This document shows, piece after piece, positions 2,499-63,405 of a DNA stretch of 64,000 bases. The notes under the pieces were generated by a model, which worked only from the letters and a program-made list of their open reading frames with translations, made no database searches and was not told the origin of the DNA. Position 1 is the first letter of the stretch, and the number at the start of each line of letters is the position of its first letter. The translations under genes and the position numbers were made by a program. This DNA comes from an uncultured candidatus Porisulfidus sp. (GTDB lineage: Bacteria; Pseudomonadota; Gammaproteobacteria; Poriferisulfidales; Poriferisulfidaceae), in the NCBI GenBank assembly GCA_965204575.1, contig OZ241993.1:224001-288000 (forward strand). Direction: 5' to 3'.

Positions 2499-2530
2499 GA
2501 CGAGAGTGGCAAATATTCATCTATTTATAG

Positions 2531-2672
2531 GGGGCTCATATACAATAATCCGCAAGCAGACCTTGTATATCCATTGACAGATCATCGGGGTCGCTTGACC
2601 GAACCGTGCCCGAAGGCCCGGCCCGGACAGAGGCGAACGCCCCTCCCTGTCCAGCCGCGCCAGTCCCCAACG
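2531..2672 (-). ncRNA. Putative omega-RNA scaffold of E1 (overlaps tnpB 3' end)
   Basis: GGACAG/CTGTC complementarity, GGGGCG..CGC/GCGACCCC stem, C-UUCG-G hairpin, terminal stem pairing into the TIR; nearly identical in E2; boundaries inferred. Confidence 0.65.
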
Positions 2673-3846
2673 CCAATATATTGAACGCGGCATTGATGTC
2701 CGCATTCCCCGCGTATCCGCAGGATACGCATTCGAATCTCTCTCGCCGACGGTTCGCCTCCGCCACATGCCCGCATCGGTGACAACGCTGGCTCGTGTAC
2801 GCCGGGTCGACCGTCTCCACCCGGTGCGCCTTGTACTCCAGCATGAAGCGCAATCGGCCCCAGCCGCTTTCCGCAATGCTCCGGTTCAAGGTGGATTTCG
2901 CCTTGACGTGCTTGCCGGGTTTCTCCACCGTGCCTCTGGCTGACTTCATCATGTTCCTGATCTTCAGACCCTCCACGCAGACCGTCCCGAACCGGTCCGC
3001 CAAGTCATGGCTGACATGGTGCTTCCAGTTGTCCCGGATATAGGCGATCCTCCGGTGCAGTTTCGCCACGATTCTCCGCTCCTTCTCGCGGCGGTGCGAA
3101 TTCACCATGATGGCTTTGCCTTGTCGAGTCACCCTCGGCCCCCCGTCCGCATCCAGCAAAGGCACGCGCTTGCGCCTCTGCATCTTCCGTTGGTGCCGCT
3201 TCAGCCGGGTCTCAAGGCGGGACACGTCCGGCATGAAAATCCGCTCCGGCTCCGTGGTCGCCACGTTCCACTTCCCTAGGTCCAGCCCGACCGCCTCGCC
3301 GTTGTCCGCCAGTTCCGCATCCGGCACTTCCCAGAACACCGACACATACCACTTCCCGTTGGGATGCTTGGCCACCACCGCCTGCTTCGCCTTGCCGTAG
3401 GCCCACGGGTCGCCGCCCTGACGGTGGATCGGCACCCAGCCCACCTTGGTCACGTAGAGTTTGCCGTCCGCAATCCGCACGTTCTGCGGAATCGTGAACG
3501 AATCGCCGGCTTCCTTGTGCTTGAACTTCGGAAAGCCACGTTGGCCCTTCCGGGCCTCTCTCATCGCATCCGCATACCTTTTCAGCGCGTACCGCACTTC
3601 CGTATACGGCAACGCCTTCAGCCATTCGTGGCCTTCGCTGTTGCGCAGCCTCGTGAATGCCAGGCTTAGAGTGAAGAAAGTCGGCGAGGGTTTCTCTCCT
3701 TGCCCTTCTTTATAGGCTTTCATCGCATCCCGGTTCTGTCCGACCGCCCAGTTCCAGACGTAGCGGTTCGCCCCGGCGATGCCGGACAGCAGCTGTCCCC
3801 GGCGCAGGGTGCCGGGATACAGGCGATAGACGGATGAACGGATCAT
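2536..3846 (-). CDS. tnpB: TnpB RNA-guided endonuclease
   Basis: N-terminal YRLYP...ANRYVWNW, RuvC-I GLDLG, RuvC-II VEGL, YTSQ, Zn finger CHRCG/CVSCG, RuvC-III ADINAA; start set at MIRSS by comparison with the second copy. Confidence 0.95.
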   Translation of the reverse strand: MIRSSVYRLYPGTLRRGQLLSGIAGANRYVWNWAVGQNRDAMKAYKEGQGEKPSPTFFTLSLAFTRLRNSEGHEWLKALPYTEVRYALKRYADAMREARKGQRGFPKFKHKEAGDSFTIPQNVRIADGKLYVTKVGWVPIHRQGGDPWAYGKAKQAVVAKHPNGKWYVSVFWEVPDAELADNGEAVGLDLGKWNVATTEPERIFMPDVSRLETRLKRHQRKMQRRKRVPLLDADGGPRVTRQGKAIMVNSHRREKERRIVAKLHRRIAYIRDNWKHHVSHDLADRFGTVCVEGLKIRNMMKSARGTVEKPGKHVKAKSTLNRSIAESGWGRLRFMLEYKAHRVETVDPAYTSQRCHRCGHVAEANRRRERFECVSCGYAGNADINAAFNILALGTGAAGQGGAFASVRAGPSGTVRSSDPDDLSMDIQGLLADYCI

Positions 3847-3852
3847 GAAAGG

Positions 3853-3882
3853 ATTATGCCATGCCGGAAACCGATTCGACAA
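3853..3882 (-). promoter_or_regulatory. Probable sigma70 promoter for leaderless tnpB mRNA
   Basis: TTGTCG-18 bp-CATAAT with extended TGG, 6 nt before ATG; TGGCATAAT and its spacing conserved in E2. Confidence 0.5.
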
Positions 3883-3975
3883 AAACAAGATAAGGTATTG
3901 AATATATACGAATTATCGTGGGTTTTGCGGATTATCGTATACAATTCCCATTTATAGCCTATTGGGTGTTTGAAA

Positions 3976-12195: not shown

Positions 12196-13543
12196 GGCGC
12201 ATCACGGTTTTGTGTGGAATAGAGGGTCAGGGATAATGCTTCCGCGTTTTAGTCTGGAGTGTGGTCTGATGGAAGCAGTGAACAAGTTTTGCGAGATGCT
12301 GATGTTTCTGCATCCGCCGTGGGAGGTGGTCTCGGTGTCCTGTCGGGAAGGAGGCGAGGATCGCAGCCCGGGGCGCGTCACGATCGAGTTGGCCTATCAG
12401 GCGAAGAGCCTGGTGCCGTGTCCGGAATGCGGGACCTTGTGCAAGCGGCACGACACGAAGGCGCGGGAGTGGCGGGACCTGGATTTGATGGGTTGGCGCA
12501 CGACCTTGCGGGCCGAGGTGCCGCGGGCGAACTGCCCGGAGCACGGGATTCGGCAGATCGCGGTGCCGTGGGCGGAGTCCCACGGTCGTTTCACGATGCG
12601 CTTCGAGACGGAGGTGATCGAGGACCTGCTGGCGATGCCGCTGCGGGCGGTGGCGCAGAAGTGGGGGCTGAGCTGGCATCAGGCGGACGGCATCCGCTCG
12701 CGGGCGGTGCGGCGCGGATTGGCGCGACGCGGGCCGCAGGCACCGAAGCGGATCGGCATCGACGAGACCTCGTTCCAGAAGCGGCATGAATATGTCTCGA
12801 TCGTGGTCGATCAGAAGCCGGCGTCCGGGCGCAAGGGGGTGGTGCTGTATGTGGGAGACCGCAAGGATCAGGCAGCGGTGGAGCCGTTTTTCAGAGAGTT
12901 GGGCGACGCCGCCTGCGCGCAGGTTGAGACGGCCGCGATGGATCTGGCGCCGGCCTACATCGCGGCGACCCTGAAGTACACCCAGGCCGACATCTGCATC
13001 GACCGCTTCCATGTGGTGAGCCTGCTCAACCAGGCGGTGGACCAGGTGCGCCGGGCGGAGCACAAGAGGTTGCTGGCGCAAGGCGATGCCCGCCTGGCGG
13101 GCACCCGTTTCGACTGGCTGATGACCGAGGAGCGGATGGGCCCGGCCCGGCGCCAGCGTCTGGAAGCGTTACGCAAGGAGGACCTGAAGGTGGCCCGGGC
13201 CTGGATCCTGAAGGAACGGGCGGCGGAGATCTGGGCGTTGCGCGACCGGACCCTGGCCTACTACGCCTGGGAAGCCTGGCATCAGGCGGCGAAACGCTCG
13301 CGGCTGGCCCCGGTGATCAAGGCGGCGGAGACGATCTGGAAGCATGTGGAAGAGATCCTGAACGCCGCCGTGCTGGGCATCAGCAATGCCCTGTCGGAAT
13401 CCATCAACGCGAAAGTGCAGTGGATCAAACGCCAAGCCTGCGGCTACCGCAGCCGCGAGCGCTTCCGTGAAGCCATCTACTTTCACTTGGGCGGACTCGA
13501 CCTGTATCCGAGACCTCCGTTCCACACAATTCCGTGAAGACCC
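12196..13543 (+). mobile_element. ISL3 family insertion sequence (1348 bp)
   Basis: Ends read inward GGCGCATCACGGTTTTGTGTGGAA / GGGTCTTCACGGAATTGTGTGGAA; perfect TSD CCTAAAGT at 12188-12195 and 13544-13551. Confidence 0.95.
12269..13537 (+). CDS. ISL3 family DDE transposase
   Basis: CPECG Zn finger, IGIDETS, AMDL, IDRFHVV, SNALSESINAK..KRQACGYR. Confidence 0.95.
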   Translation: MEAVNKFCEMLMFLHPPWEVVSVSCREGGEDRSPGRVTIELAYQAKSLVPCPECGTLCKRHDTKAREWRDLDLMGWRTTLRAEVPRANCPEHGIRQIAVPWAESHGRFTMRFETEVIEDLLAMPLRAVAQKWGLSWHQADGIRSRAVRRGLARRGPQAPKRIGIDETSFQKRHEYVSIVVDQKPASGRKGVVLYVGDRKDQAAVEPFFRELGDAACAQVETAAMDLAPAYIAATLKYTQADICIDRFHVVSLLNQAVDQVRRAEHKRLLAQGDARLAGTRFDWLMTEERMGPARRQRLEALRKEDLKVARAWILKERAAEIWALRDRTLAYYAWEAWHQAAKRSRLAPVIKAAETIWKHVEEILNAAVLGISNALSESINAKVQWIKRQACGYRSRERFREAIYFHLGGLDLYPRPPFHTIP

Positions 13544-36106: not shown

Positions 36107-37480
36107 ATGCTCCACCTGCACGACACCGCAACCCGCAGGAAGGTTGCCTTCGCCCCGCTCGACCCGGAGCGCGTCACCTTGTACGTCTGCGGCCCCACCG
36201 TCTACGACCACATCCATATCGGCAACGCCCGCCCGCTGGTCGTGTTCGACGTGCTGGTCCGCGTGTTGCGATCCCTCTATCCCCAGGTCATCTATGCCCG
36301 CAACCTGACCGACATCGACGACAAGATCCTGGATCGGGCCGAACAGGAGAATTGCCCGTACGACGAACTGACCGCCCGCTACATCGAGGCATTCCACGAG
36401 GTGTGCGCCGCTCTCGGAGGCCTAGAGATCGACCTGGAGCCGCGTGCAACCGAAACCATCCCGGCCATGCTGGAGATGATCCAGACCCTGTTGGATTCGG
36501 ATCACGCCTATGAAGCGGACGGACACATCCTGTTCGCGGTGGACAGTTTCGACGGGTACGGCGAACTGTCCGGGCGGCGGGTGGAGGAAATGCACCCCGG
36601 GGCCCGGGTAGAAGTAGCCGAATACAAGCGCAATCCGGCGGATTTCGTGCTGTGGAAGCCTTCAACGCCGAAACAACCGGGCTGGGACAGCCCGTTCGGG
36701 CGGGGCCGGCCAGGCTGGCACCTGGAGTGCTCGTGCATGATCGCGCATCATCTCGGCCCGACCATCGACATCCACGGCGGCGGTCAGGACCTGGTGTTCC
36801 CGCACCACGAGAACGAGCGCGCGCAGAGTTGTTGCGCTCATCCCGGCGAGTCGTTCGTCCGGCTGTGGATGCATAACGGCTATGTCACGGTCGACGGCGA
36901 AAAAATGTCCAAGTCCATCGGCAATGTGCGCCAAGTCCGGGAGCTTCTCGATCACCATCCGGGCGAACTGCTGCGCCTCGCCCTGCTGCACGCGCATTAC
37001 CGCAAGCCGCTGGACTGGACGGATGACCTGCTCCTTCAGGCGCGTCAGATCCTGGACCGGCTGTACCGGGCCTGGCAGGATGCGGGAAGCCCGGAACCCG
37101 ACGAAACCGAGCCGGATGCGGAATTCCTGCAGGCCCTGCTTGACGACCTCAATACCCCGCTGGCCCTGCAGCACCTGCGGCACGAGGCGGCGGCCCTGGC
37201 CCATCTGCAGGGAACGCAGCGCACGGAGGCCGCCCGGCGGCTGTGCGCCGGCGCCCGGATGCTCGGCCTGTTCGGATCCGCGGCCGAAGACTGGTTCCAT
37301 GCCGGCGCGACGGCCGAGAGCCTGGACGATGCCGAGATCGAAGCCCTACTGGCCGAGCGGCAAGCCGCACGGGAAAACGGGGATTACGCGGCGGCCGACC
37401 GCATCCGCGATCAGCTGTTGGAGGCTGGAATCGCGGTGGAGGACCTAGCGGACGGCAGCCACTGGCGGCGGGTACGGTAG
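36107..37480 (+). CDS. cysS: Cysteine-tRNA ligase
   Basis: CGPTVY, HIGN, GRPGWHLEC, FPHHENE, KMSKS. Confidence 0.98.
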   Translation: MLHLHDTATRRKVAFAPLDPERVTLYVCGPTVYDHIHIGNARPLVVFDVLVRVLRSLYPQVIYARNLTDIDDKILDRAEQENCPYDELTARYIEAFHEVCAALGGLEIDLEPRATETIPAMLEMIQTLLDSDHAYEADGHILFAVDSFDGYGELSGRRVEEMHPGARVEVAEYKRNPADFVLWKPSTPKQPGWDSPFGRGRPGWHLECSCMIAHHLGPTIDIHGGGQDLVFPHHENERAQSCCAHPGESFVRLWMHNGYVTVDGEKMSKSIGNVRQVRELLDHHPGELLRLALLHAHYRKPLDWTDDLLLQARQILDRLYRAWQDAGSPEPDETEPDAEFLQALLDDLNTPLALQHLRHEAAALAHLQGTQRTEAARRLCAGARMLGLFGSAAEDWFHAGATAESLDDAEIEALLAERQAARENGDYAAADRIRDQLLEAGIAVEDLADGSHWRRVR

Positions 37481-37545
37481 ACTGTGCGAATCAAACACTT
37501 CTCTTTGCAAAATGTCTTCGGGAGTTATGCAGACTTGATACAGCC

Positions 37546-38781
37546 ATGAAAGTCCATCGCACCGTCCGCTACCGCCTGCATCCCGGCTCACGCCGGAAAA
37601 ACCAGCAACTGCACGGCACCGCCGAAGCTTGTCGTTTCGTGTGGAACCACATGGTCGGCAAACTCAGGGACGAGTACGAGTTCGGAATCAAGCCGGATTT
37701 CCACTATTACTCGATGGGCAAGGTCTTCACCGTTCTGCGCCGTCACAGCTACAAGTGGTTGCAGGATTATTCGGCATATGTCGTCAAGAGTTCATTGCAA
37801 CCCATCGAGACGGCTTACAAGGAATTCTTCAAGGACGTGAAGACGGGTGGGAAACTCAACCGGAACCCCCCGCAATTCCACGGCAAGTGGACAACCAAGC
37901 CGAGTTTTCCAATCAACTATGTGTCGGCGAAGGTGACGGGAGAGAGCCTGTACGTGCAGAGAATCGGCTGGATGAAGCTGGTCGGCAACAACCCGGACCC
38001 GGACGGCGAATTCAAGTCCGGTCGCGTCTTGCAGGAATGCGGAAACTGGTACGCCTATCTCACTTACGAAGTGCAAGCCGAAGCCAGTCTCCCTCACGCC
38101 ATCAAGGAAGTGGGCATCGACCGCAATGTGAATGAAGACGGGTGGGCGGTATTATCGGACGGCACGAAGCATCCGGGGCCGGATTTGGAGAAGAAAACGG
38201 CACGGCGAAAACGCTACCAGCGCAAGATGGCGCGACAGGTGAAAGGGAGCAACCGCAGAAAGGTCACCAAGGTGAAGTTGCAGAAAGCATTCCGTGCGGA
38301 ATGCTTCGCCCGGTTGAACTGGGCGCACCACGTCAGCAAGAGCATTGCGTCAGAATACGATGTGGCATACATGGAGAAACTGAACATCGGGGACATGACG
38401 AAATCCGCCAAGGGAACGGTGGAGGAACCGGGTACGAACGTAAAAGCGAAGTCCGGGCTGAACCGGAAGATCCTGGCCAGCGCATGGGGCACGCTGGAGT
38501 TGTGCCTGGACTACAAGATGGAAGTGCGCCCTGTACCTCCGGCGTATACCAGCCAGACGTGCCATTCATGCGGGCACGTCGATGAGAAAAACAGAAATGG
38601 AACAGATTTCAAGTGCACCGCTTGCGGGCACGCGGACGATGCGGACGTGAACGCCGCATTGAACATTTTGGCCTTCGGGAATGGGGCGACTGGACGTGGA
38701 GACGGCGGGGTTGCCCGGTCTGAGAAGCGTCAAGAAATGGGACAATCTGGCAGGCGAGAGTCTGCCAAGTTATCTACATAA
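37546..38781 (+). CDS. tnpB: TnpB RNA-guided endonuclease, second lineage
   Basis: YRLHP...CRFVWN, RuvC-I GIDRN, RuvC-II MEKL, YTSQ, CHSCG/CTACG, RuvC-III ADVNAA. Confidence 0.95.
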
Positions 38782-38786
38782 ATCCC
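38683..38786 (+). ncRNA. Putative omega-RNA scaffold of E3
   Basis: GACGT(38693)/GCGTC(38727) pairing, AGAC..GTCT stem, TGGCAGGC-GAGA-GTCTGCCA hairpin extending into the TIR; boundaries inferred. Confidence 0.6.
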
Positions 38787-39257
38787 ATGTCTTCTTTATT
38801 TTCTCCTCGGGAGAGTATCAAGCAAGTCGAAGAAGGGGATCAATTGGCCCCGAAATTCGATGAAAACGGGCTGATCCCCGTGGTGACCACCGACTACGAA
38901 TCCGGCGAAGTGCTGATGGTCGCGTACCAGAACGCCGAGGCGCTGGAGCGGACCATCCGGAGCGGCGAAGCCTGGTACTACAGCCGCAGCCGCCAATGCC
39001 TGTGGCACAAGGGCGCCACCAGCGGACTGGTGCAGAAAGTGCGCGAACTGCGCATCGACGACGACCAGGACACGGTCTGGATGCGCGTGACGGTCGCAGG
39101 CTCCGGCGCCAGTTGCCACGTCGGCTACCGCTCCTGCTTCTACCGCAAGGTGCCGACCGGGGATTCGGCCGGCCAAGCGCTGGAACACCTGGAACGCGAC
39201 AAAACCTTCGACCCCGATGAGGTCTACGGCGACGCTGAAAATCCGACCCGCCTGTAA
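38787..39257 (+). CDS. hisI: Phosphoribosyl-AMP cyclohydrolase
   Basis: [38 protein letters not shown]. Confidence 0.95.
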
Positions 39258-39271
39258 CCCCCGCACTGCCG

Positions 39272-42200
39272 ATGCCTTCGACCTTCCGTTTGCTGCTGAC
39301 ACGGCGGCTCGGCCCTTTCTTCTTCACCCAGCTGACCGGGGCCTACAACGACAACGTCTTCCGTAACGCGCTGGTCGTCCTGATCACCTACCGCATTACC
39401 GAACTGGCCGGATTCGGAAGCGAAGAACTGGTTGCCGCCTCCGCCGGGATCTTCCTGCTCCCTTTCCTGCTGTTCTCCGCCCTGGGCGGAAAACTGGCCG
39501 ATCACTTTCCGCGGCACCGGCTGATCCAGCACATCAAGCTCGCGGAATGCGCCCTGATGGCACTGACCTGGATCGGTTTTGCCACCGGGTCAGTCACCTT
39601 TCTGTTCGTCATCCTGTTCTTGACCGGACTGCAGTCCGCCCTGTTCGGTCCGGTGAAGTACGCCATCCTGCCGAACCTGCTGTCCCGGGCCGAACTGCTG
39701 GCCGGCAACGCCTGGATCGCGGTCGGCACGTTCATCTCCATCCTCGCCGGAAGCCTGACCGGAACTCTCGTAATGGGTGTTCCCGACGCCGCCCTGTGGG
39801 TGCCCGGCATCCTGGTGATCAGCGCCGGGGCCGGTTACCTGGCAAGCCACCGGATTCCGGCGCAGGTTCCCGCCGGCGCCGGTCTGCGGCTCTCGTTCGA
39901 GCCGTTCAGCGAAACCGCGCGGATCGTGCGAGAAGGCCTGAGCCAGCCTCGCCTGGCCTGGCTGATGCTCGCCATCAGCTGGTTCTGGATGATCGGGGTT
40001 GGCATGCTCGTTCAGTTGCCGCTGTTCGTCCGGGACGTGCTGGCCGGCAACGAGCAGGCATTGGCGGGCGCGCTTGCGATCTTCACCGTCGGCGTCGGGC
40101 TCGGTGCCCTGTTGTGCAACCGCTGGCTCGGCGGCACGGCGCGGGCGACCCTGGCACCCATATCCGCAGCGGCCTTGGGCGCCGGCTTCGTGTTGCTCAG
40201 CCTCGTTCCCCCGGCCGATGTTCCGCTTCGCGGATTCGCCGACCTGCTGGAGGACCCGCAGGCCGTAACCGCCCTCGGCATCCTGCTGGCGCTTGCCGTG
40301 GCGGGCGGTTTCTATGTTACGCCCCTGTACACCCTGGTGCAGCAGCGGGCGCCGGAGGACCGGCGCGCGCGGGTCATCGCCTGCAACAACATCCTCAATT
40401 CCATCTTCATGGCGCTGGCCTCGGCGACGTCCATCGTCATTTTCCAGTCCGGCGGCACGATCGTCACCGTGTGGCTGGCCATGGCCGCCACCGCTCTCCT
40501 GGCCGCACTGCTGTTGCTGCATTTCACGCAGGGCAGTTTCCGCCATGTCCTTTTGTGGCCGGTCGCGTCAGTCGTACTGATCACGGAAACGCCCCCGCCC
40601 GGTTCGCTGGTATTCGCCCGGCGTGGAAGCGCCTGGGTCGCCTGGGCGCTGGCTGCCACCATCCCCGGCAAACTTGAAATCCATGTTGCTCCCGCGCTGT
40701 TGCGCCGCGCGAGCCTGCGACTGCTCGCCTGCTGGGTCCGCCTGAAACCGCTGGACCCCGCGGCCCTGGACGACCAGTGGCCAGGCAATCAGGATGAACC
40801 CGCCCGCACCGTGCTGATCCTGCCGCCTTCCGGCCCCGAGGGCGAAGCTTCGCTGCTGGAATTGATGCAGACCGCCCGGGAGCGGTCCGGCCGCCCCGTC
40901 GAAGTCGCGTCCGTCAGTGACCCGGAACTCTACATGCCCCGCTTCTACCCGCGCATCCGGGTCGGGTTCGAAAACTGTCCGCTGCCGCCCCGCGCGGCCG
41001 ACGAGCCGGAAGCGCTCCGGCGCGATGCCCTCAAGATCTACGACCTGCTGTGTGAACTGGAATACCGGATGCACTGCCAGGAATGCACGGCATTGCAGTC
41101 CTTGTACGGTGCAGCCCGAAGGTTCGGGGCTGGCTATCCGATCCTGGCCGATCTGGAGCGGACCCTGACGTACCGGCAACTGCTCCAGGCGACCCACGCC
41201 GTCGCCCAGCTGCTTGAGCGGGCCCTGCCGAAGGCACAGGATACGGTCGGCATCCTGCTGCCGAACGCGACCGCCACGCCGATCACTTTTTTCGCCATGC
41301 ACGCGCTTCACCGCATCCCGGTCATGCTCAACTACACCGCCGGGCCAGCCAATGTCGCCAGTGCCTGCCGCACGGCCGGACTGACCCACGTCGTGACTTC
41401 CCGCCGGTTCGTCGAGAAGGCCGACCTTGGAGGCTTGACCGACGCCCTGGCCGGAGACTACGCCCTGCTGTGGCTGGAGGATCTGAGGCCGCAACTGAGC
41501 CTCGGCATGAAACTCAAGGCCGCCTGGCGCGCCATGCGGCCGCCCCCGAAAGGTGATCCCTCGGACCCCGCCGTAGTGCTGTTCACCTCCGGGTCGGAAG
41601 GCGAACCCAAAGGCGTCGTGCTGAGCCACCGAAACCTGCAGCGCAACCGTTGCCAGGTCCGCGCGGTGCTGAACCTGACTCCCCAGGACCACCTGCTGCT
41701 GTGCCTCCCCACCTTTCACTCGTTCGCCTTGGGCGTTGGCCTGCTGCTGCCGTTGATGGCCGGGCTGCGCTGCACCCTGTACCCCAGCCCCCTCCACTAC
41801 AAGCAGATCCCCGAACTGATCCGAAAGCACGATATCACCGTGTTCTTCTCCACCGACACGTTCCTGAACGGCTACGGGCAGGCGGCAAGCCCGGAAGACC
41901 TGCAAAGCCTGCGCTTGATCGTGGCCGGCGCCGAACCGCTCAAGCCGGGCACCCGGAAATTCTGGCAGGACCGTTTCGGTCTGACCGTCCACGAGGGCTA
42001 CGGCGTGACCGAAACCTCACCCGCGGTCAGTGCCAACACGTTTGCGTGCAACCGACCGGGCTCGGTCGGCCGCCTGATGCCGGATATCGAAGCGCGCCTG
42101 GAACCGCTGGACGACTCCCAGGACACCATCGACACCACCCGCGGGCGATTGTTTCTGCGCGGCCCGAACGTGATGTCCGGCTACTGGATGCCGGGGGAAA

Positions 42201-42607
42201 GCCGGCTATTGACCCCTCCGGAGGACGGCTGGCACGATACCGGCGACGTTGCCGAATTCGACGATGACGGATTCCTGAGCCTGCATGGCCGAGCCAAGCG
42301 GTTCGCCAAGATCGGAGGCGAGATGGTGTCGCTCGCCTACGTAGAGCAGCAGGTCAGCGAAGTCTGGCCGGAATACCGTCACATCGTCTGCGCCGTCAAC
42401 CACCCCACCCGAGGAGAGCAATTGGTCCTCATTACTGAGCATCCCGAGCCGGACCGGGGTCGGTTGAGACAGGCCCTGGGGGAACGGGGAGTGGGAGAGC
42501 TGGCGCGGCCCCGGCTGGTTTTGCCGGTCGAGGTTCTGCCGCTGCTTGGCAGCGGCAAACCGGACTTGCGGAAAGCACAGGAACTGGCGCTCTCGGTGCT
42601 ACACTAG
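39272..42607 (+). CDS. aas: MFS (LplT-like) + degenerate acyltransferase + acyl-ACP synthetase fusion
   Basis: GAYNDNVFRNA, LFGPVKY, FTSGSEGEPKG, EGYGVTE, KRFAKIGGEMVSL. Confidence 0.88.
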   Translation: MPSTFRLLLTRRLGPFFFTQLTGAYNDNVFRNALVVLITYRITELAGFGSEELVAASAGIFLLPFLLFSALGGKLADHFPRHRLIQHIKLAECALMALTWIGFATGSVTFLFVILFLTGLQSALFGPVKYAILPNLLSRAELLAGNAWIAVGTFISILAGSLTGTLVMGVPDAALWVPGILVISAGAGYLASHRIPAQVPAGAGLRLSFEPFSETARIVREGLSQPRLAWLMLAISWFWMIGVGMLVQLPLFVRDVLAGNEQALAGALAIFTVGVGLGALLCNRWLGGTARATLAPISAAALGAGFVLLSLVPPADVPLRGFADLLEDPQAVTALGILLALAVAGGFYVTPLYTLVQQRAPEDRRARVIACNNILNSIFMALASATSIVIFQSGGTIVTVWLAMAATALLAALLLLHFTQGSFRHVLLWPVASVVLITETPPPGSLVFARRGSAWVAWALAATIPGKLEIHVAPALLRRASLRLLACWVRLKPLDPAALDDQWPGNQDEPARTVLILPPSGPEGEASLLELMQTARERSGRPVEVASVSDPELYMPRFYPRIRVGFENCPLPPRAADEPEALRRDALKIYDLLCELEYRMHCQECTALQSLYGAARRFGAGYPILADLERTLTYRQLLQATHAVAQLLERALPKAQDTVGILLPNATATPITFFAMHALHRIPVMLNYTAGPANVASACRTAGLTHVVTSRRFVEKADLGGLTDALAGDYALLWLEDLRPQLSLGMKLKAAWRAMRPPPKGDPSDPAVVLFTSGSEGEPKGVVLSHRNLQRNRCQVRAVLNLTPQDHLLLCLPTFHSFALGVGLLLPLMAGLRCTLYPSPLHYKQIPELIRKHDITVFFSTDTFLNGYGQAASPEDLQSLRLIVAGAEPLKPGTRKFWQDRFGLTVHEGYGVTETSPAVSANTFACNRPGSVGRLMPDIEARLEPLDDSQDTIDTTRGRLFLRGPNVMSGYWMPGESRLLTPPEDGWHDTGDVAEFDDDGFLSLHGRAKRFAKIGGEMVSLAYVEQQVSEVWPEYRHIVCAVNHPTRGEQLVLITEHPEPDRGRLRQALGERGVGELARPRLVLPVEVLPLLGSGKPDLRKAQELALSVLH

Positions 42608-42611
42608 CTTT

Positions 42612-44030
42612 GGGGCTCATATACAATAATCCGCAAGCAGACCTTGTATATCCATTGACAGATCATCGGGGTCGCTTGACCGAACCGCGCCCGAAGGCCC
42701 GGCTCGGACAGCGGCGAACGCCCCTCCCTGTCCAGCCGCGCCAGTCCCCAACGCCAGTATGTTGAACGCGGCATTGATGTCCGCGTTCCCCGCGTATCCG
42801 CAGGATACGCATTCGAATCTCTCTCGCCGACGGTTCGCCTCCGCTACATGCCCGCATCGGTGGCAACGCTGGCTCGTGTACGCCGGGTCGACCGTCTCCA
42901 TCCGGTACGCCTTGTAGCCTAGCATGAAGCGCAACCGGCCCCAGCCGCTTTCCGCAATGCCTCGGTTCAGGGCGGATTTCGCGTTGATATGCTTGCCCGG
43001 CTTCTCCACCGTGCCCTTGGCCGACTTCATCATGTTCCTGATCTTCAGACCCTCCACGCAGACCGTCCCGAACCGGTTCGCCAAGTCGTGGCTGACATGG
43101 TGCCGCCAGTTGTCCCGGATGTAGGCGATCCTCCGGTACAGTTTCGCCACGATCTTTCGTTCCTTCTCGCGACGGTGCGAATTCACCTGGATGGTTTTAC
43201 CTTGTCTGGTTAGCCTAGGCTCTCCATCCGCGTCCAAAAGGGGCACCCGTTGGCGGCGGTCCATCTTTCGCTTATGCCGTTTCAGTTTTGTTTCAAGATC
43301 GGAGACGTCCGGCATGAAAATTCGGTCGGGCTCCGTGGTGGCCACGTTCCACTTCCCCATGTCCAGCCCGACCGCCTCGCCGTTGTCCTCCGGTTTCGTA
43401 TCCGGTACTTCCCAGAACACCGACACATACCACTTCCCGTTCGGAGGCTTGACCACCACGGCCTGTTTTGCCTCGCCGTAAGCCCATGGATCACCACCCT
43501 GACGGTGGATCGGCACCCAACCCACCTTGGTCACGTAGAGTTTGCCGTCCGCGATCCGCACGTTCTGCGGAATCGTGAACGAGTCGCCGTCTTCCTTGTG
43601 CTTGAACCTCGGAAAGCTACACTTGCCCTTCCTGGCTTCCTTCATGGCATCCGCATACCGTTTCAGCACATACCGCACTTCCGCATACGGCAACTCCCTC
43701 AGCCATTCGTGGCCTTCGCCGTTGCGCAGCCTCGTGAATGCCAGGCCCAGGGTGAAGAAAGTCGGCGAAGGCTTTTCGCCTTTCCCTTCTTTATAGGCTT
43801 TCATCGCATCCCGGTTCCGTCCAATGGCCCAGTTCCAGACGTAGCGGTTCGCCCCGGCGATGCCGGACAATAACTGAGCCCGGCGCAAGGTGCCGGGATA
43901 CAGGCGATAGACGGACGAACGGATCATGCAGGGATTATGCCATGCCGGAAACCGACCTGCTAAAGATGGGATAAGATATTGAATATATACGGATTATCAT
44001 GAGTCTTTCGGATTATCGTATACAATTCCA
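42612..44030 (-). mobile_element. Non-autonomous TIR element carrying only tnpB (element E2, 1419 bp, diverged copy of E1)
   Basis: Same ends and length as E1; flanks CTAGCTTT (42604-42611) and CTAGTTTT (44031-44038), 7/8 identical. Confidence 0.88.
42617..43927 (-). CDS. tnpB: TnpB RNA-guided endonuclease (paralog of 2536-3846)
   Basis: GLDMG, VEGL, CHRCG/CVSCG, ADINAA; colinear with the E1 protein. Confidence 0.95.
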   Translation of the reverse strand: MIRSSVYRLYPGTLRRAQLLSGIAGANRYVWNWAIGRNRDAMKAYKEGKGEKPSPTFFTLGLAFTRLRNGEGHEWLRELPYAEVRYVLKRYADAMKEARKGKCSFPRFKHKEDGDSFTIPQNVRIADGKLYVTKVGWVPIHRQGGDPWAYGEAKQAVVVKPPNGKWYVSVFWEVPDTKPEDNGEAVGLDMGKWNVATTEPDRIFMPDVSDLETKLKRHKRKMDRRQRVPLLDADGEPRLTRQGKTIQVNSHRREKERKIVAKLYRRIAYIRDNWRHHVSHDLANRFGTVCVEGLKIRNMMKSAKGTVEKPGKHINAKSALNRGIAESGWGRLRFMLGYKAYRMETVDPAYTSQRCHRCGHVAEANRRRERFECVSCGYAGNADINAAFNILALGTGAAGQGGAFAAVRAGPSGAVRSSDPDDLSMDIQGLLADYCI

Positions 44031-44091
44031 CTAGTTTTCGAGATATAACGGTGAATACCCGCTCCTTTGGAACACCAATTGGGAGGTGCGG

Positions 44092-45603
44092 ATGCGAGAC
44101 ATAACACCAGTTCCCATGGATCTACTGCTGACCGCAGTGGACGTGCTGGCTTCGCTCTTGCTGTTCGGCATCGGGATCCTGATCCTGTTCGCGATGGTGC
44201 TCTACATCGTCGACGTCACGCAAACCCGCCACGCGGTGCGCCGCAACTATCCCGTCATCGGCCGCTTCCGGTACTGGTTCGAGCATCTGGGCGAATTCTT
44301 CCGCCAGTACTTCTTCGCCATGGACCGCGAGGAGATGCCGTTCAACCGGGCGCAGCGCTCCTGGATCTACCGCGCCAGCAAGAACCTCAGCAACACCCTG
44401 CCCTTCGGCTCCACCCGCGACCTGACGCGCCCCGGCACCGTTCTGTTCGTCAATGACCCTTACCCTGACCTCGACCAGAAGGACGTTGATCCTCCATTGC
44501 TGACCATCGGCCCGGGAACCCTGGAGCCTTACGCCACGGAACATTTCTTCCACATCTCGGCCATGAGCTACGGCGCCATCTCGAACGTCGCCGTTCAAGC
44601 GCTGTCGCACGGTGCGGCCAAGGCGGGATGCTGGCTCAATACCGGCGAGGGCGGGCTGTCGCCCTACCACCTGGAGGGAGACTGCGACCTGGTGTTCCAG
44701 ATCGGCACCGCCAACTACGGCGTGCGCGACGAGCACGGCAACTTCTCGGAGACACGTCTGCAGGAATTGGCCGAAATCCCGCAAATACGCATGTTCGAGA
44801 TCAAACTCTCGCAGGGTGCCAAGCCTGGCATGGGCGGGATCCTGCCGGGTGTCAAGGTGACCGAGGAAATCGCCCGCATCCGCGGCATTCCGGCCGGAAA
44901 GGCATCACTCAGCCCGCGGCGGCATCCCGGCATCGGCAACACTTCCGATTTGCTGGACAGGATTGCCCGGACCCGCGACCTGACCGGTAAGCCGGTCGGC
45001 TTCAAGACCGTGATCGGCTCCGAACAGATGCTGGATGACTGGCTGGATGAAATCCTGCGCCGCGGTCCCGAGTTCGCCCCGGACTTCATCACCGTCGATG
45101 GCTGCGATGGCGGCAGCGGTGCCGCCCCCATGCCGTTGCTCGACGCCGTCGGGCTGCCGCTGCGCGAAAGCCTGCCGATGGTGGTCGACCGCCTGGAGCA
45201 GGGGGGCCTTCGCGACCGCGTCCGCGTGATCGCGTCCGGCAAGCAGGTCAATCCGTCCGATGTGGCCTGGGCGCTGTGTCTGGGAGCGGATTTCGTCTGC
45301 TCGGCACGTGCGTTCATGTTCGCGCTCGGCTGCATCCAGGCCATGCAGTGCAACCGCAATACCTGCCCGACCGGCGTCACCACGCACAATCCCCGCCTGC
45401 AGCAGGGGTTGAATCCGAAGAACAAGGCCGTCCGGGTCGCGCACCTGGCCCGCAACATGGAGACGGAAGTCGCCATGATCGCGCACTCCTGCGGCGTGGC
45501 TCACCCGCGTGCGCTGAACCGCACCCACGCGCGCATCGTGCAACCCAACGGCCTGAGCATCTCGCTGCACAAGCTTTACCCGATGCCCGTCCGAACCGCC
45601 TGA
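44092..45603 (+). CDS. FMN-binding glutamate synthase family protein
   Basis: SAMSYG, NTGEGG, EIKLSQGAKPG, GCIQAMQCNRNTCPTG. Confidence 0.9.
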   Translation: MRDITPVPMDLLLTAVDVLASLLLFGIGILILFAMVLYIVDVTQTRHAVRRNYPVIGRFRYWFEHLGEFFRQYFFAMDREEMPFNRAQRSWIYRASKNLSNTLPFGSTRDLTRPGTVLFVNDPYPDLDQKDVDPPLLTIGPGTLEPYATEHFFHISAMSYGAISNVAVQALSHGAAKAGCWLNTGEGGLSPYHLEGDCDLVFQIGTANYGVRDEHGNFSETRLQELAEIPQIRMFEIKLSQGAKPGMGGILPGVKVTEEIARIRGIPAGKASLSPRRHPGIGNTSDLLDRIARTRDLTGKPVGFKTVIGSEQMLDDWLDEILRRGPEFAPDFITVDGCDGGSGAAPMPLLDAVGLPLRESLPMVVDRLEQGGLRDRVRVIASGKQVNPSDVAWALCLGADFVCSARAFMFALGCIQAMQCNRNTCPTGVTTHNPRLQQGLNPKNKAVRVAHLARNMETEVAMIAHSCGVAHPRALNRTHARIVQPNGLSISLHKLYPMPVRTA

Positions 45604-57965: not shown

Positions 57966-58846
57966 ACCGGACTTCCTCCTGGCGCGATTACTGGGAGGTC
58001 ACCAAGCCGCGCGTGGTCGCGTTGATGACGTTCACCGCACTGATCGGCATGGTCCTGGCCGATCCCCTGATGCAAGTGCCCATGAAAATGCTGTACGGCG
58101 CGGTCGGCATCACCCTCATGGCGGCCGCGGCCGCGGCCATCAACCAGATCGCCGACCAGCACGTGGATGCCCAGATGGACCGTACGCAGGCCCGGCCCCT
58201 GCCTCGCGGTTCGCTGCGCACGCCTCAAGTACTCGGATTTGCATTCCTGCTCGGCGTGGGCGGGTTCCTGCTGCTGTACTTGCGGGTCAACGGGCTGACG
58301 GCCTGGCTGACGCTCGGCTCCCTGATCGGTTACGCGCTGATCTATACCCTCTACCTCAAGCGCGCGACGCCCCAGAACATCGTCATCGGCGGGGCTGCCG
58401 GCGCCACGCCTCCCCTGCTCGGCTGGGCCGCGGTCACCGGCCATATCGAAGCAGGGGCTCTGGCCCTGTTCCTGATCATCTTCGTGTGGACGCCACCCCA
58501 TTTCTGGGCGCTGGCCCTGCACCGCAAGGAAGACTACGCGAAAGCCGACATCCCGATGCTCCCGGTGACGCACGGCGACCGCTACACCCGGCTGCAGATC
58601 ACGCTGTATACCGTGCTGCTGACCGCAACGAGCATGTTGCCGTTCGTCATCCAGTTGTCCGGCCAGGTGTACCTGGCTGGCGCACTGATCCTGAACGGGG
58701 TTTTCCTGGCCTACGCGATCCGGATGCAGAAAGAGGCCAGCAACCGTCTCGCCATGCCGACCTTCACCTATTCGATTATCTACCTGATGGGACTGTTCAC
58801 ATTGCTGCTCGTGGACCGGTACCTGGGATTGTTCCAAACCACCTGA
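57962..58846 (+). CDS. cyoE: Protoheme IX farnesyltransferase
   Basis: TKPRV, DAQMDRTQARPL, NIVIGG, WTPPHFW. Confidence 0.95.
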   Translation: MNRTSSWRDYWEVTKPRVVALMTFTALIGMVLADPLMQVPMKMLYGAVGITLMAAAAAAINQIADQHVDAQMDRTQARPLPRGSLRTPQVLGFAFLLGVGGFLLLYLRVNGLTAWLTLGSLIGYALIYTLYLKRATPQNIVIGGAAGATPPLLGWAAVTGHIEAGALALFLIIFVWTPPHFWALALHRKEDYAKADIPMLPVTHGDRYTRLQITLYTVLLTATSMLPFVIQLSGQVYLAGALILNGVFLAYAIRMQKEASNRLAMPTFTYSIIYLMGLFTLLLVDRYLGLFQTT

Positions 58847-59151
58847 TGACTGCTTGAAGCGAAGTTTTATTAGTTCCATAATCACTCCTCCGGTCTTGCC
58901 AAATCTCCCGCGGTGCGAGGCCCGGAAATCCGGAGCGGGTTGATCGCCCGAACCTCTCTACAAGCGTGATCACGCTGTAAATCTTCAGTGAGCAGCGTGC
59001 CGCACTCGCAAGTCCGTGCAGCGACAAACACTGCGTGTGTGTTGCATTGCATAGGTTCTGCACAGGTTTGCGTGCGTAAGTTCATAAACATTACTGTGCT
59101 AGAATTTTCGGCACCCAGTTTCTTGCCGAAATCATTCGGAGGAATTCGATA

Positions 59152-63073: not shown

Positions 63074-63300
63074 GTCACGCTACATACGCTTCTACTGACC
63101 GCGGCGAATATGTCGCCGTTGATCGTCCAGTTGGACATACCTGACAGCCGGGAGGTTGGCTAGGGATTACTGCTCTCTCAAGACGAGGACGGAAAGAGGC
63201 CAGCAACCGACTTGCCATGCCGGCCTTCACCGATTCGATCATCCGCCTGATGGGACTGTTCACGCTGCTGCTTCTGGATCGGTACCTGGGATTGTTCCAA
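63074..63300 (+). pseudogene. Duplicated 3' fragment of cyoE
   Basis: 63192-63300 matches 58729-58837 (about 97/109 by hand count); 63074-63133 encodes VTLHTLLLTAANMSPLIVQL vs cyoE ITLYTVLLTATSMLPFVIQL. Confidence 0.85.
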
Positions 63301-63405
63301 GTGCCCGAAAGACTGGAGTTTTTCGCTCCGGTACAGCTTCTGAATCGACTTGCACGCATTGAGGGAAAAACCCTTCTTGCCTTCCTTTAGACGAGGATAT
63401 TCGCA

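Follow-up and report, generated by a model that had tools for sequence, protein, structure and literature searches.

Three elements in the window, which is the whole 64,000-nt stretch analysed here, raise the question of where the guide of a TnpB nuclease begins, and which TAM precedes its target, when tnpB is carried by a transposon that duplicates its insertion site. TnpB is understood through IS605 and IS607, in which the target motif of the transposase also serves as the TAM and excision leaves no scar. Specifically, the target motif of the IS605 transposase TnpA equals the TAM of its TnpB, so empty sites can be cut. The elements E1, E2, and E3 instead carry tnpB as their sole gene between terminal inverted repeats (TIRs) and are flanked by 8-bp target-site duplications (TSDs), which would form the first bases of a guide taken from the 3' flank.

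Anatomy and transposon family of E1-E3

The elements and their flanking features are as follows.

42612..44030, minus strand: E2, a non-autonomous IS1595-type element of 1419 bp with TIRs TGGAATTGTATACGATAATCCG... and ...CGGATTATTGTATATGAGCCCC
42617..43927, minus strand: E2 tnpB open frame, 436 aa
44031..44038, minus strand: upstream TSD copy of E2, AAAACTAG on that strand
42604..42611, minus strand: downstream TSD copy of E2, AAAGCTAG on that strand, which makes up nt 1-8 of the predicted guide
42592..42611, minus strand: predicted E2 guide, consisting of the TSD and the next 12 nt, which are unique flank; its length is an assumption and its position comes from covariation
44039..44041, minus strand: candidate TAM position of E2, TCG on that strand, with G at 44039 as the constrained base
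2531..3949, minus strand: E1, 1419 bp, paralogous to E2
2523-2530 and 3950-3957, minus strand: TSD copies of E1, CTATAAAT
3958, minus strand: candidate TAM base of E1, G
2511-2530, minus strand: predicted E1 guide
37520..38786, plus strand: E3, an IS1595-type element of 1267 bp whose tnpB belongs to another family (group C)
37512-37519 and 38787-38794, plus strand: TSD copies of E3, ATGTCTTC
37509-37511, plus strand: candidate TAM position of E3, AAA
38787-38806, plus strand: predicted E3 guide

Read on its minus strand, E2 ends in ...TTGTATATGAGCCCC at 42612 and is followed by AAAGCTAGTGTAGCACCGAG (42611-42592), while E1 ends at 2531 before CTATAAATAGATGAATATTT and E3 ends at 38786 before ATGTCTTCTTTATTTTCTCC. 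All sequences quoted in the original prediction lie where it had placed them, including the bases 5' of the upstream TSD, ..CAATAGG in E1 and ..TATCTCG in E2. The boundary and TSD of E3 are independently confirmed, because a 26-kb contig of a related organism (run X4) holds an exact empty site. This contig jumps from 37511 to 38787 and lacks 1275 bp, the sum of 1267 and 8, with the 8 letters fitting on either side. E2 is absent from the same contig, and its left edge falls exactly at 42611|42612. E1 has no counterpart in the orthologous intergenic regions of genomes G002 and G007, which are too diverged for a base-level empty site.

E1-E3 are DDE-type transposons of the IS1595 family kind, with TIRs that begin GGGAATT and an 8-bp TSD. 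The IS1595 family makes an 8-bp target duplication (ISfinder), and the TSD copies here agree at 8/8 positions in E1, 7/8 in E2 (AAAACTAG/AAAGCTAG), and 8/8 in E3. The group-C TIR of E3, GGGAATTATGTAGCAAAATCTGCAAG, also occurs on transposase-carrying elements of the genus (L196, L201, and L204), and elements with the same TIRs encode DDE_Tnp_IS1595 and Zn_ribbon_IS1595. The group-A TIR of E1 and E2 matches the group-C/IS1595 TIR at 19/26 positions by eye, so its IS1595 assignment is by likeness; no transposase-carrying element with the exact group-A TIR was found. The genome itself lacks an intact IS1595 transposase and contains just two broken PF12762 fragments, and because tnpB is also their sole gene, E1-E3 are classified as non-autonomous. 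The genome also contains a 565-bp MITE whose TIRs are the same and whose TSD is perfect.

IS605, which the original prediction took as its frame of reference, does not fit these elements. An IS200/IS605 transposon has neither TIR nor TSD, carries subterminal hairpins, and is moved by a Y1 TnpA (PF01797) supplied in cis or in trans. No Y1 TnpA was found in the genome at 98.75% completeness; with TIRs and 8-bp TSDs present, this identity is rejected. ISL3 was also considered as the mobiliser of E1-E3 and dropped, as the GGGAATTAT TIR belongs to IS1595 elements. The resident ISL3 copy (window 12196-13543) has TIRs GGCGCATCACGGTTTTGTGTGGAA, which match those of the fourth TnpB family of the genome (group B, with ISL3-type TIRs), for which ISL3 still fits, and do not match those of E1-E3. 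Weak PF01610 matches in most genomes come from a 400-440-aa membrane-like protein with histidine-rich motifs, which by eye and from its translation is not a transposase.

The E2 protein has the domain set of a TnpB: HTH_OrfB_IS605, OrfB_IS605 (RuvC), and the zinc-ribbon TNB domain (Cas12f1-like_TNB) all score above the curated Pfam cut-offs. Alignment to an ISDra2-type TnpB chain shows that the RuvC residues D/E/D are kept (GlDmG, vEgl, and naDinAAfNI), and the zinc finger CxxC...CxxC is intact, with its cysteines visible in the translation. The closest solved structures are those of ISDra2 TnpB (8bf8/8exa/8h1j, E = 1e-19). E1 and E2 proteins are identical at 388/436 residues. In tblastn, likeness of the E2 protein to other families ends at residue 391, and the rest overlaps the omegaRNA region. 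The TnpBs of E1-E3 are apparently active.

The predicted omegaRNA scaffold and the start of the guide

Comparison covers 110 TnpB loci from this genome and its relatives, of which 73 have TIRs and 8-bp TSDs, giving 71 unique curated insertion sites. The remaining 37 were left out for lack of callable ends: the gene was truncated, the locus lay at a contig end, TSD agreement was below 6/8, or inspection showed the call to be false. The TnpBs fall into six families, among them group A (the E1/E2 family), group B (ISL3-type TIRs), and group C (the E3 family); in a quick tree, groups A, B, and the remainder form a trichotomy. A class-wide search finds close relatives in 6/400 genomes, and outside the order a TIR/TSD element occurs only in genome G418. 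A metagenome scan returned only 5 distant relatives, and a scan of genome contigs returned the same genus as the numbered genomes plus one distant match.

The following elements of the predicted RNA are used below.

42743..42748, minus strand: E2 hexamer GGGACT, the predicted partner of the element's terminal 6 nt (42612-42617, AGCCCC)
2662-2667, minus strand: E1 hexamer
38677-38682, plus strand: E3 hexamer GGGAAT
42654..42667, minus strand: E2 GATGATCTGTCAAT, in which CTGTC forms a helix with GACAG of the anchor (42724-42733); this helix covaries between families
42619..42651, minus strand: predicted E2 terminal hairpin; its 5' arm lies in the internal sequence once proposed as a guide, and its 3' arm is the inner TIR

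The omegaRNA is predicted to come from the 3' end of tnpB. Because the last 6 nt of the elements pair with an upstream hexamer at a fixed position, with compensatory changes between TIR types, its scaffold is predicted to extend to the final TIR base. Located 15-10 nt upstream of a GGAC..GAG anchor, the hexamer forms 6/6 pairs with the terminus in 59/71 elements and at least 5/6 in all 71. The paired sequences vary between families: GGGACU/AGUCCC, GGCGCU/AGCGCC, GGGAAU/AUUCCC, and GGGAAC/GUUCCC. As controls, slid hexamers form 2.1-3.2 pairs, and hexamers set against termini of another TIR type form 4.1. Pairing reaches only 5/6 in E1 and E2, compared with 6/6 in most relatives.

A second helix, GAC.. 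with ..GUC, is 99.3% paired in alignment A1 and shows double changes in 3/5 pairs, with a covariation score of 0.278 versus 0.158 in shuffles, 0/500 of which reached 0.278. In the same alignment the terminal 9 nt of group B occupy separate columns, so that its figure of 85.4% for pseudoknot pairing is an underestimate and the position-defined count is preferred. When 26 representatives were folded, most of them, from all six families, formed a hairpin that uses the inner TIR, and in 6/6 groups the 3' end of the element shows more structure than its mirrored 5' counterpart. Rfam has no meaningful match at 42500-43100, where the best hit (E = 0.32) lies far under the gathering score.

Structurally, the outermost 6 nt of the TIR would pair with a hexamer roughly 100-160 nt upstream, in the manner of the guide-adjacent pseudoknot of known omegaRNAs, and the inner part of the 3' TIR would serve as the 3' arm of a terminal hairpin. 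Because the scaffold appears to end at the last base of the element, the guide would be the flank itself, made of the 8-nt TSD and the unique bases that follow. The guide thus most likely starts with the duplicated bases, as originally predicted, since covariation allows the scaffold to be followed as far as the last TIR base.

Bases 5' of the TSD and the alternative readings

The base directly 5' of the upstream TSD (position -1) is G at 49, A at 19, T at 2, and C at 1 of the 71 sites. The mirrored position lacks such a bias (T 26, A 18, C 15, G 12). The signal differs by family. Group A has G at -1 in 8/9 sites (P = 1e-4), the exception being a C at locus L003, and in 3/4 further sites with only the 5' end defined (by eye). 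Group B has CTG, with G at -1 in 18/19, T at -2 in 12/19, and C at -3 in 12/19 sites; group F has TA in 6/6; and group C has a purine, mostly A, in 15/15. We infer a very short TAM of 1-3 constrained positions: G in group A, a purine in group C, CTG in group B, and TA in group F. The flanks had been described as sharing no TAM. None is indeed visible from the window copies alone, but across 71 sites the final G that E1 and E2 share proves to be the signal. The minimal TAM suggested at the same time agrees with this comparison, in which only 1-3 positions are constrained and no 4-5 nt TAM emerges.

An alternative placement treats the TSD as part of the scaffold or as a linker, with the guide starting behind it, as proposed for Fanzor1 and Fanzor2*. 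Passages of Yoon et al. 2023 (PMC10711439) predict TIR and TSD within the reRNA scaffold and describe reRNAs that extend about 15 nt past the TSD, and in elements of the E1-E3 type the TIR likewise falls within the predicted scaffold. A guide that starts after the TSD would, however, make the last TSD bases the TAM, and those columns are A/T-rich only, with no family-specific base, whereas the constrained positions lie directly 5' of the TSD. The TSD also has no conserved sequence able to pair in the scaffold. This placement is considered unlikely.

It could also be argued that the elements are decaying relics with inactive TnpBs and that the patterns are inherited leftovers. The broken transposase fragments fit such decay, copies are only 78-89% alike, and two group-C copies contain frameshifts or a stop. 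Most copies nonetheless have intact open frames with their catalytic residues kept, and the RNA helices are maintained across families by compensatory changes. As the sites arose by separate insertions, simple inheritance cannot account for the TAM signal, and decay is quite improbable as the source of the patterns.

The one-sided purine or G beside the TSD might instead reflect the target preference of the mobilising transposase and have nothing to do with TnpB. The TSDs are 72% A+T, which shows some target preference, and for group A, whose cognate transposase was not found, a target bias of its own is possible. The signal is one-sided relative to tnpB orientation, though, and 23 transposase-carrying IS1595/ISL3 copies used as a control show no such bias. 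In the nine ISL3 copies, whose TIRs are group-B-like, G occupies -1 in 1/9 (Fisher 2.5e-5 versus group B), and 14 IS1595 copies with group-C/E-like TIRs have a purine at 14/28 flanking positions, compared with 50/52 in the TnpB elements (Fisher 2e-6). The motif follows the TnpB clade (G, CTG, TA, or R), while the TIR tip stays constant across groups C, E, and F. These comparisons make a transposase preference a decidedly improbable explanation.

Finally, a fixed internal guide after GTCAA (TGGATATACAAGGTCTGC), which would aim TnpB at element ends or another replicon, is highly implausible. Canonical relatives without TIRs do end in ...GGAGGATGTCAAC directly before their flank, and the internal 18-mer is, as had been pointed out, identical in E1 and E2 and TIR-like; a 23-nt string containing it has two occurrences in the window, where chance would give 0. 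The 18-mer resembles the TIR because it is the 5' arm of the hairpin with the inner TIR, and the corresponding hairpin of every family differs in sequence. Comparison with the canonical relatives places the conserved GAAGCG...UCAA in mid-scaffold, and covariation runs on past the internal candidate to the last 6 nt of the element. In the genome, with up to 2 mismatches allowed, the 18-mer matches the three group-A copies and nothing else; in 6 viral contigs it occurs in two unrelated A/T-rich contexts without TnpB, at about the frequency expected by chance on a rough estimate.

Proposed mechanism and relation to known systems

With a guide that starts with the TSD, the target of TnpB would be the unoccupied site, which has one copy of the 8-mer followed by the right flank. 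Such a site would be recognised only behind a fitting short TAM, which is G in the E1/E2 family and, in the E3 family, a purine that is mostly A. An occupied site would be spared for two reasons: the downstream TSD copy is preceded by the element's own ...CCC, and the upstream copy matches the guide over 8 nt only. All 71 elements end in a pyrimidine (CCC in 50, GCC in 18, and others in 3), and therefore the self site lacks a TAM.

It is proposed that the transposase does not choose the TAM, and that today's asymmetric purine enrichment exists because only insertions that happened to land behind a TAM gain homing or retention driven by TnpB. This selective explanation rests on empty alleles in related populations, such as the run X4 contig without E2 and E3. 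Anatomy, covariation, and enrichment are computed from the sequences; from them we infer RNA ends, cleavage, and a homing advantage. Taken as a whole, the account of IS1595-type DDE elements with an omegaRNA that ends in the TIR, a guide that starts with the TSD, a short TAM, and homing or retention is probable.

E1-E3 share with IS200/IS605 TnpBs such as ISDra2 the protein family, the domain set, an omegaRNA at the 3' end of tnpB, and a flank-derived guide, the last two as predicted here; as in ISDra2-type omegaRNA, a predicted helix joins the last bases of the scaffold to an upstream segment. Unlike IS200/IS605, they have TIRs and 8-bp TSDs without a Y1 TnpA, their guide would start with the duplicated target, and their TAM would be only 1-3 nt long and not set by the transposase. 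They resemble IS1595-family insertion sequences in the TIR tip GGGAATTAT.TA and the 8-bp TSD. Elements with IS1595 ends in relatives carry DDE_Tnp_IS1595 and sometimes restriction-modification or ThsB-like genes, whereas the cargo of E1-E3 is TnpB only, whose predicted RNA overlaps and would depend on the TIR.

IS607-family TnpB (ISXfa1) offers a further parallel, as passages of PMC10711439 describe a scaffold boundary shifted to suit the end requirements of the transposase and guide-adjacent bases in a pseudoknot. IS607 differs from E1-E3 in its serine recombinase, the lack of TIR and TSD, and the absorption of one flanking nucleotide. Fanzor1 and Fanzor2*, found in eukaryotic TIR/TSD DNA transposons, are TnpB-type nucleases carried by cut-and-paste-type transposons with the TIR in the guide-RNA scaffold, according to passages of the same paper. 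E1-E3 differ from them in being bacterial and in their IS1595-/ISL3-type hosts, and the position of their TAM signal would place the TSD in the guide and not in the scaffold.

The nearest prokaryotic likeness is to the DDE-associated TnpB branches described in main-text passages of Altae-Tran et al. 2023 (PMC10691335), where TnpBs lie between inverted terminal repeats and the ends of some solo TnpBs resemble those of elements with a transposase. That main text names IS630 only and contains 0 occurrences of 'ISL3', although its supplements may list these families, and its passages on DDE-associated TnpB elements hold no TAM or scaffold analysis. Passages of a 2026 review (PMC13565253) give ISL2, IS630, and IS1031 as TnpB-associated families and treat the role of TnpB in the persistence of DDE transposons as unresolved.

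In contrast to IS605 and IS607, TnpB occurs here in TIR/TSD transposons whose transposase fixes no TAM. The results suggest that the 3' end of the omegaRNA doubles as a transposase binding site and has adapted by compensatory substitutions from one TIR type to another. They also suggest that the duplicated target now forms the first 8 nt of the guide, and that the TAM has been reduced to 1-3 nt, a point of relevance to small nucleases with few targeting restrictions. More broadly, and tentatively, this bacterial TnpB clade may have become the cargo of DDE transposons (IS1595-type, once ISL3-type), with an omegaRNA rebuilt so that the TIR supplies the guide-adjacent pseudoknot and hairpin, and with a TAM that, no longer supplied by the transposase, evolved to one purine. 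The one-sided purine enrichment at old sites would in that case be a natural trace left by RNA-guided homing or retention. If this broader account is true, these enzymes of about 400 aa would come near to compact editors free of a TAM. The asymmetry at insertion sites would also amount to evidence from nature that TnpB aids the persistence of DDE transposons.

Anatomy and boundaries of the TnpB elements

The source genome (G000) is one contig (C1) of 1.82 Mb and 60% G+C, and the window spans G000:C1:224001-288000. It contains 16 tnpB genes in three families (three in A, six in B, and seven in C), and 16 of 16 sit in elements with terminal inverted repeats (TIRs) as well as target-site duplications (TSDs). 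The site under study is the 3′ end of E2 on the minus strand, which reads ...GATGATCTGTCAAT, a hairpin, GAGCCCC, and then flank AAAGCTAGTGTAGCACCGAG. The strings and flanks in the original prediction all agree with the sequence.

TnpB elements named in the text (window positions unless stated)
42612-44030, minus strand: E2, family A tnpB element
2531-3949: E1, paralogue of E2
Genome 362141-363555, outside the window: third, older family A copy
37520-38786, plus strand: E3, with a TnpB of a family other than that of E1 and E2

E1 and E2 are 89% identical in DNA, and their proteins agree at 388 of 436 residues. Both elements and the third family A copy carry imperfect TIRs of the GGGAATTGTATACGATAATCCGCAA type, with 8-bp TSDs that match at 8/8 (E1), 7/8 (E2), and 6/8 (third copy) positions. 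E3 is bounded by GGGAGTTATG.../...CATAAATCCC and has a perfect TSD, ATGTCTTC. This TSD (38787-38794) takes in the ATG of the open frame that follows (38787-39257); through the duplication, the start codon remains immediately behind E3.

Boundaries were checked against contigs from four public sequencing runs over 36900-44500. A 26-kb contig of a related organism (run X4) contains the exact empty site of E3: it jumps from 37511 to 38787, a difference of 1275 bp (1267 + 8), and eight letters at the joint fit on either side. The same contig also lacks E2: its left edge is at 42611|42612, and the element and the diverged spacer are replaced by 42 other letters. E1 is absent from the orthologous intergenic regions of two compared genomes (G002 and G007), where divergence is too high for a base-level joint.

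The E2 open frame encodes 436 aa with HTH_OrfB_IS605, OrfB_IS605, and Cas12f1-like TNB domains, and its hits include ISDra2 TnpB structures (E = 1e-19). Its top match of all is a nuclease designed by AI; aligned to that chain, E2 has the three RuvC residues at their places. Likeness to the genome's other TnpB families ends at residue 391, just past RuvC-III, and the last 45 codons are read as overlapping the predicted omegaRNA.

Transposon type and probable mobilisers

The original prediction viewed these elements through IS605. That frame does not hold: their TIRs and 8-bp TSDs are of IS1595 type, and Y1 TnpA (PF01797) has 0 matches in the source genome, which is 98.75% complete. Relatives carry the GGGAATTAT.TA tip of the family A and C TIRs very often: genomes G020 and G418 have 14-18 matches per strand, and a control pattern has 0. 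Elements of non-TnpB size with these ends encode DDE_Tnp_IS1595 and Zn_ribbon_IS1595, and some carry restriction-modification or ThsB-like cargo. Four such IS1595-family loci of G418 and G020 (L187, L188, L191, and L194) have defence-type cargo.

Cargo of IS1595-family loci with the same TIR tip (G418/G020 set)
L187: D12 methyltransferase and HaeIII-like endonuclease
L191: ThsB/TIR-domain protein
L194: methylase-HNH fusion

The group C TIR, GGGAATTATGTAGCAAAATCTGCAAG, also occurs in transposase-carrying IS1595 elements of the same genus (L196, L201, and L204). A 565-bp MITE outside the window (G000:C1:16578-17142) has group C/IS1595-type TIRs and a perfect TSD, AAAATCGC, around an interior unrelated to the TnpB elements. 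Judged by the TIRs shared with these transposase-carrying elements and the MITE, E1-E3 are IS1595-type elements that are non-autonomous and carry tnpB as cargo. The source genome retains IS1595 transposase only as two broken fragments, so E1-E3 are probably now stranded there. Among 41 relatives, which are not independent of one another, IS1595 domains occur in 24 and this TnpB clade in 18.

Family B shares its TIRs with a resident ISL3 element, which encodes a 441-aa transposase (DDE_Tnp_ISL3, E = 9e-64). Because the TIRs match, this element is the likely mobiliser of the genome's six group B TnpB elements. Its three copies are 100% identical, each 1348 bp, with perfect 8-bp TSDs (CCTAAAGT, AAATGTTC, AATCTATT).

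Resident ISL3 copies
Window 12196-13543, plus strand
G000:C1:36846-38195
G000:C1:396974-398323

Several other repeats were observed. Near G000:C1 625020, outside the window, about 40 bp comprise two ISL3/group B-type TIRs back to back (GGCGCTTCGAGGTTTTGTG / CACACAAATTCGTGAAGCGCC), which looks like an element wholly deleted. A 124-nt direct repeat, 85% identical, lies at window 58729-58852 and 63192-63315, 4.4 kb apart. Further multi-copy elements, whose open frames are 342, 378, and 539 aa long, lie at G000:C1:24145-25603, 713401-714859, 1241919-1243330, 1813850-1815261, 1066530-1068414, and 1674005-1675889. A 1217-bp repeat (1378265/1646909) opens with the EF-Tu-like reading MAKEKFER.. and is therefore probably a duplicated gene rather than an IS. 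PF01610 (ISL3 DDE) gives weak partial matches (30-53 bits) in almost all genomes of two families. They fall in a single-copy, membrane-like protein of 400-440 aa with histidine-rich motifs, which is probably not a transposase; it lies at G000:C1:793189-793509 and at one locus in most of the relatives.

TnpB is known from DDE-associated elements with inverted terminal repeats. Altae-Tran et al. 2023 (PMC10691335) describe six such branches, along with solo TnpBs whose ends match; IS630 is named in the main text, which does not contain 'ISL3', and the supplementary tables may add families. A 2026 review (PMC13565253) names ISL2, IS630, and IS1031 and considers why TnpB might benefit DDE transposons little. 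Yoon et al. 2023 (PMC10711439) place TIR and TSD within Fanzor reRNA scaffolds. Full-text literature searches, judged from titles and abstracts, returned no bacterial TnpB elements with the IS1595- or ISL3-type ends seen here.

The predicted omegaRNA scaffold and start of the guide

For comparison, 110 TnpB loci were examined (16 own copies plus 68 and 26 further loci), of which 73 were curated, representing 71 unique sites. The ends of the other 37 were not callable owing to truncated genes, contig ends, TSD matches below 6/8, or end calls found false on inspection. An anchor, GG[AG][CT]..GAG, is conserved 3′ of the RuvC-III codons in all families and is missing from 2 of the 73. The element's final six bases can pair with the hexamer that lies 15-10 nt upstream of this anchor: complementarity is 6/6 in 59 of 71 elements and at least 5/6 in all 71. 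Controls slid by 1-3 nt give 2.1-3.2 pairs, and pairing hexamers with termini from a different TIR type yields 4.1.

Hexamer/terminus pairs
GGGACU/AGUCCC: groups A and D
GGCGCU/AGCGCC: ISL3-type group B
GGGAAU/AUUCCC: groups C, E, and F
GGGAAC/GUUCCC: one element

A second helix joins GAC[AG]G to C[UC]GUC, which belongs to the 'GUCAA' motif. In 56 distinct alignment rows this helix reaches 99.3% pairing, and three of its five pairs show double changes. The joint covariation score of both helices is 0.278 versus 0.158 in shuffles, was attained in 0 of 500, and falls to 0.012-0.155 for slid versions. Most of 26 folded representatives from all six families form a hairpin between GUCAA and the tail; its 3′ arm is the inner TIR, and its sequence differs family by family. 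In six of six groups, predicted folding is more stable at the element 3′ end than at the mirrored 5′ end. Canonical non-TIR relatives (L180, L181, and L084) share a mid-scaffold GAAGCG motif and terminate ...GGAGGATGTCAAC at the flank.

From the covarying helices, the inner-TIR hairpin, and the ends of the canonical relatives, it is concluded that the predicted scaffold takes in the TIR down to its final base and that the guide would start with the flank and hence with the TSD. The original prediction had proposed such TSD-initial guides, and the terminal pairing supports them. Its alternative, a fixed internal guide after GTCAA identical in E1 and E2, is rejected: that stretch is the 5′ arm of the terminal hairpin, which is why it resembles the TIR read inward, and the predicted scaffold continues beyond it.

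In a quick maximum-likelihood tree of 70 TIR-borne TnpBs and three canonical outgroups, all 70 form one clade (SH-aLRT 100) separate from the outgroups. Every group is monophyletic, and A, B, and (D+(E,F,C,G418)) form a trichotomy. This topology implies a single switch between ends of IS1595 type and of ISL3 type, in either direction, which by the paired sequences was accompanied by a compensatory hexamer change.

A one-sided signal beside the TSD

When all sites are oriented by tnpB, the position immediately 5′ of the upstream TSD (-1) holds G at 49 of the 71 sites, A at 19, T at 2, and C at 1. On the opposite strand, the counts at the mirrored position past the downstream TSD are T 26, A 18, C 15, and G 12; flank background frequencies are 0.25 for G and 0.22 for A.

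Bases 5′ of the upstream TSD by group
Group A (E1/E2), 9 sites: G at -1 in 8 (P = 1e-4)
Group B, 19 sites: G at -1 in 18, T at -2 in 12, C at -3 in 12 (CTG)
Group C (E3), 15 sites: A at -1 in 10, G in 5
Group D, 5 sites: G at -1 in 5
Group E, 17 sites: G at -1 in 13
Group F, 6 sites: TA in 6

Four extra group A copies with a clear 5′ end and no matching TSD, read by eye, have G at -1 in three. The sole group B element without this G is L037 (G005:C16); its 3′ flank starts directly with another group B-type TIR, and the insertions are therefore adjacent or nested.

The one-sided bias is absent from transposase-carrying copies of ISL3 (n = 9) and IS1595 (n = 14). The ISL3 controls read c,t,c,c,t,t,t,g,t at -1 (Fisher 2.5e-5 versus group B). 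A purine occupies 14/28 flanking positions of the IS1595 controls versus 50/52 for TnpB elements of the same TIR type (Fisher 2e-6). The columns of the TSD are rich in A/T, and none has a family-specific base. The suggestion of a minimal TAM, first made from two flanks, agrees with the 71 sites, which show one to three constrained bases by group (G, CTG, TA, or purine). E1 (AGG), E2 (TCG), and E3 (AAA) are each consistent with their own family. The last base is a pyrimidine in each of the 71 elements, whose ends mostly read CCC, and the occupied site therefore lacks the motif.

The computed results comprise the anatomy, the two covarying helices, and an enrichment that is one-sided and clade-specific. 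In the proposed mechanism, RNA processing would resemble that of other TnpBs, and the guide would consist of the TSD plus about 8-12 nt. TnpB may then cleave unoccupied alleles bearing the short TAM, after which recombination with an occupied copy would restore or spread the element. Empty alleles are present in a related population (the X4 contig). The elements are old, with within-family identity of 78-92%, and this age fits survivorship. Through cleavage of TAM-bearing empty alleles and recombination, insertions behind a TAM would thus persist longer than others.
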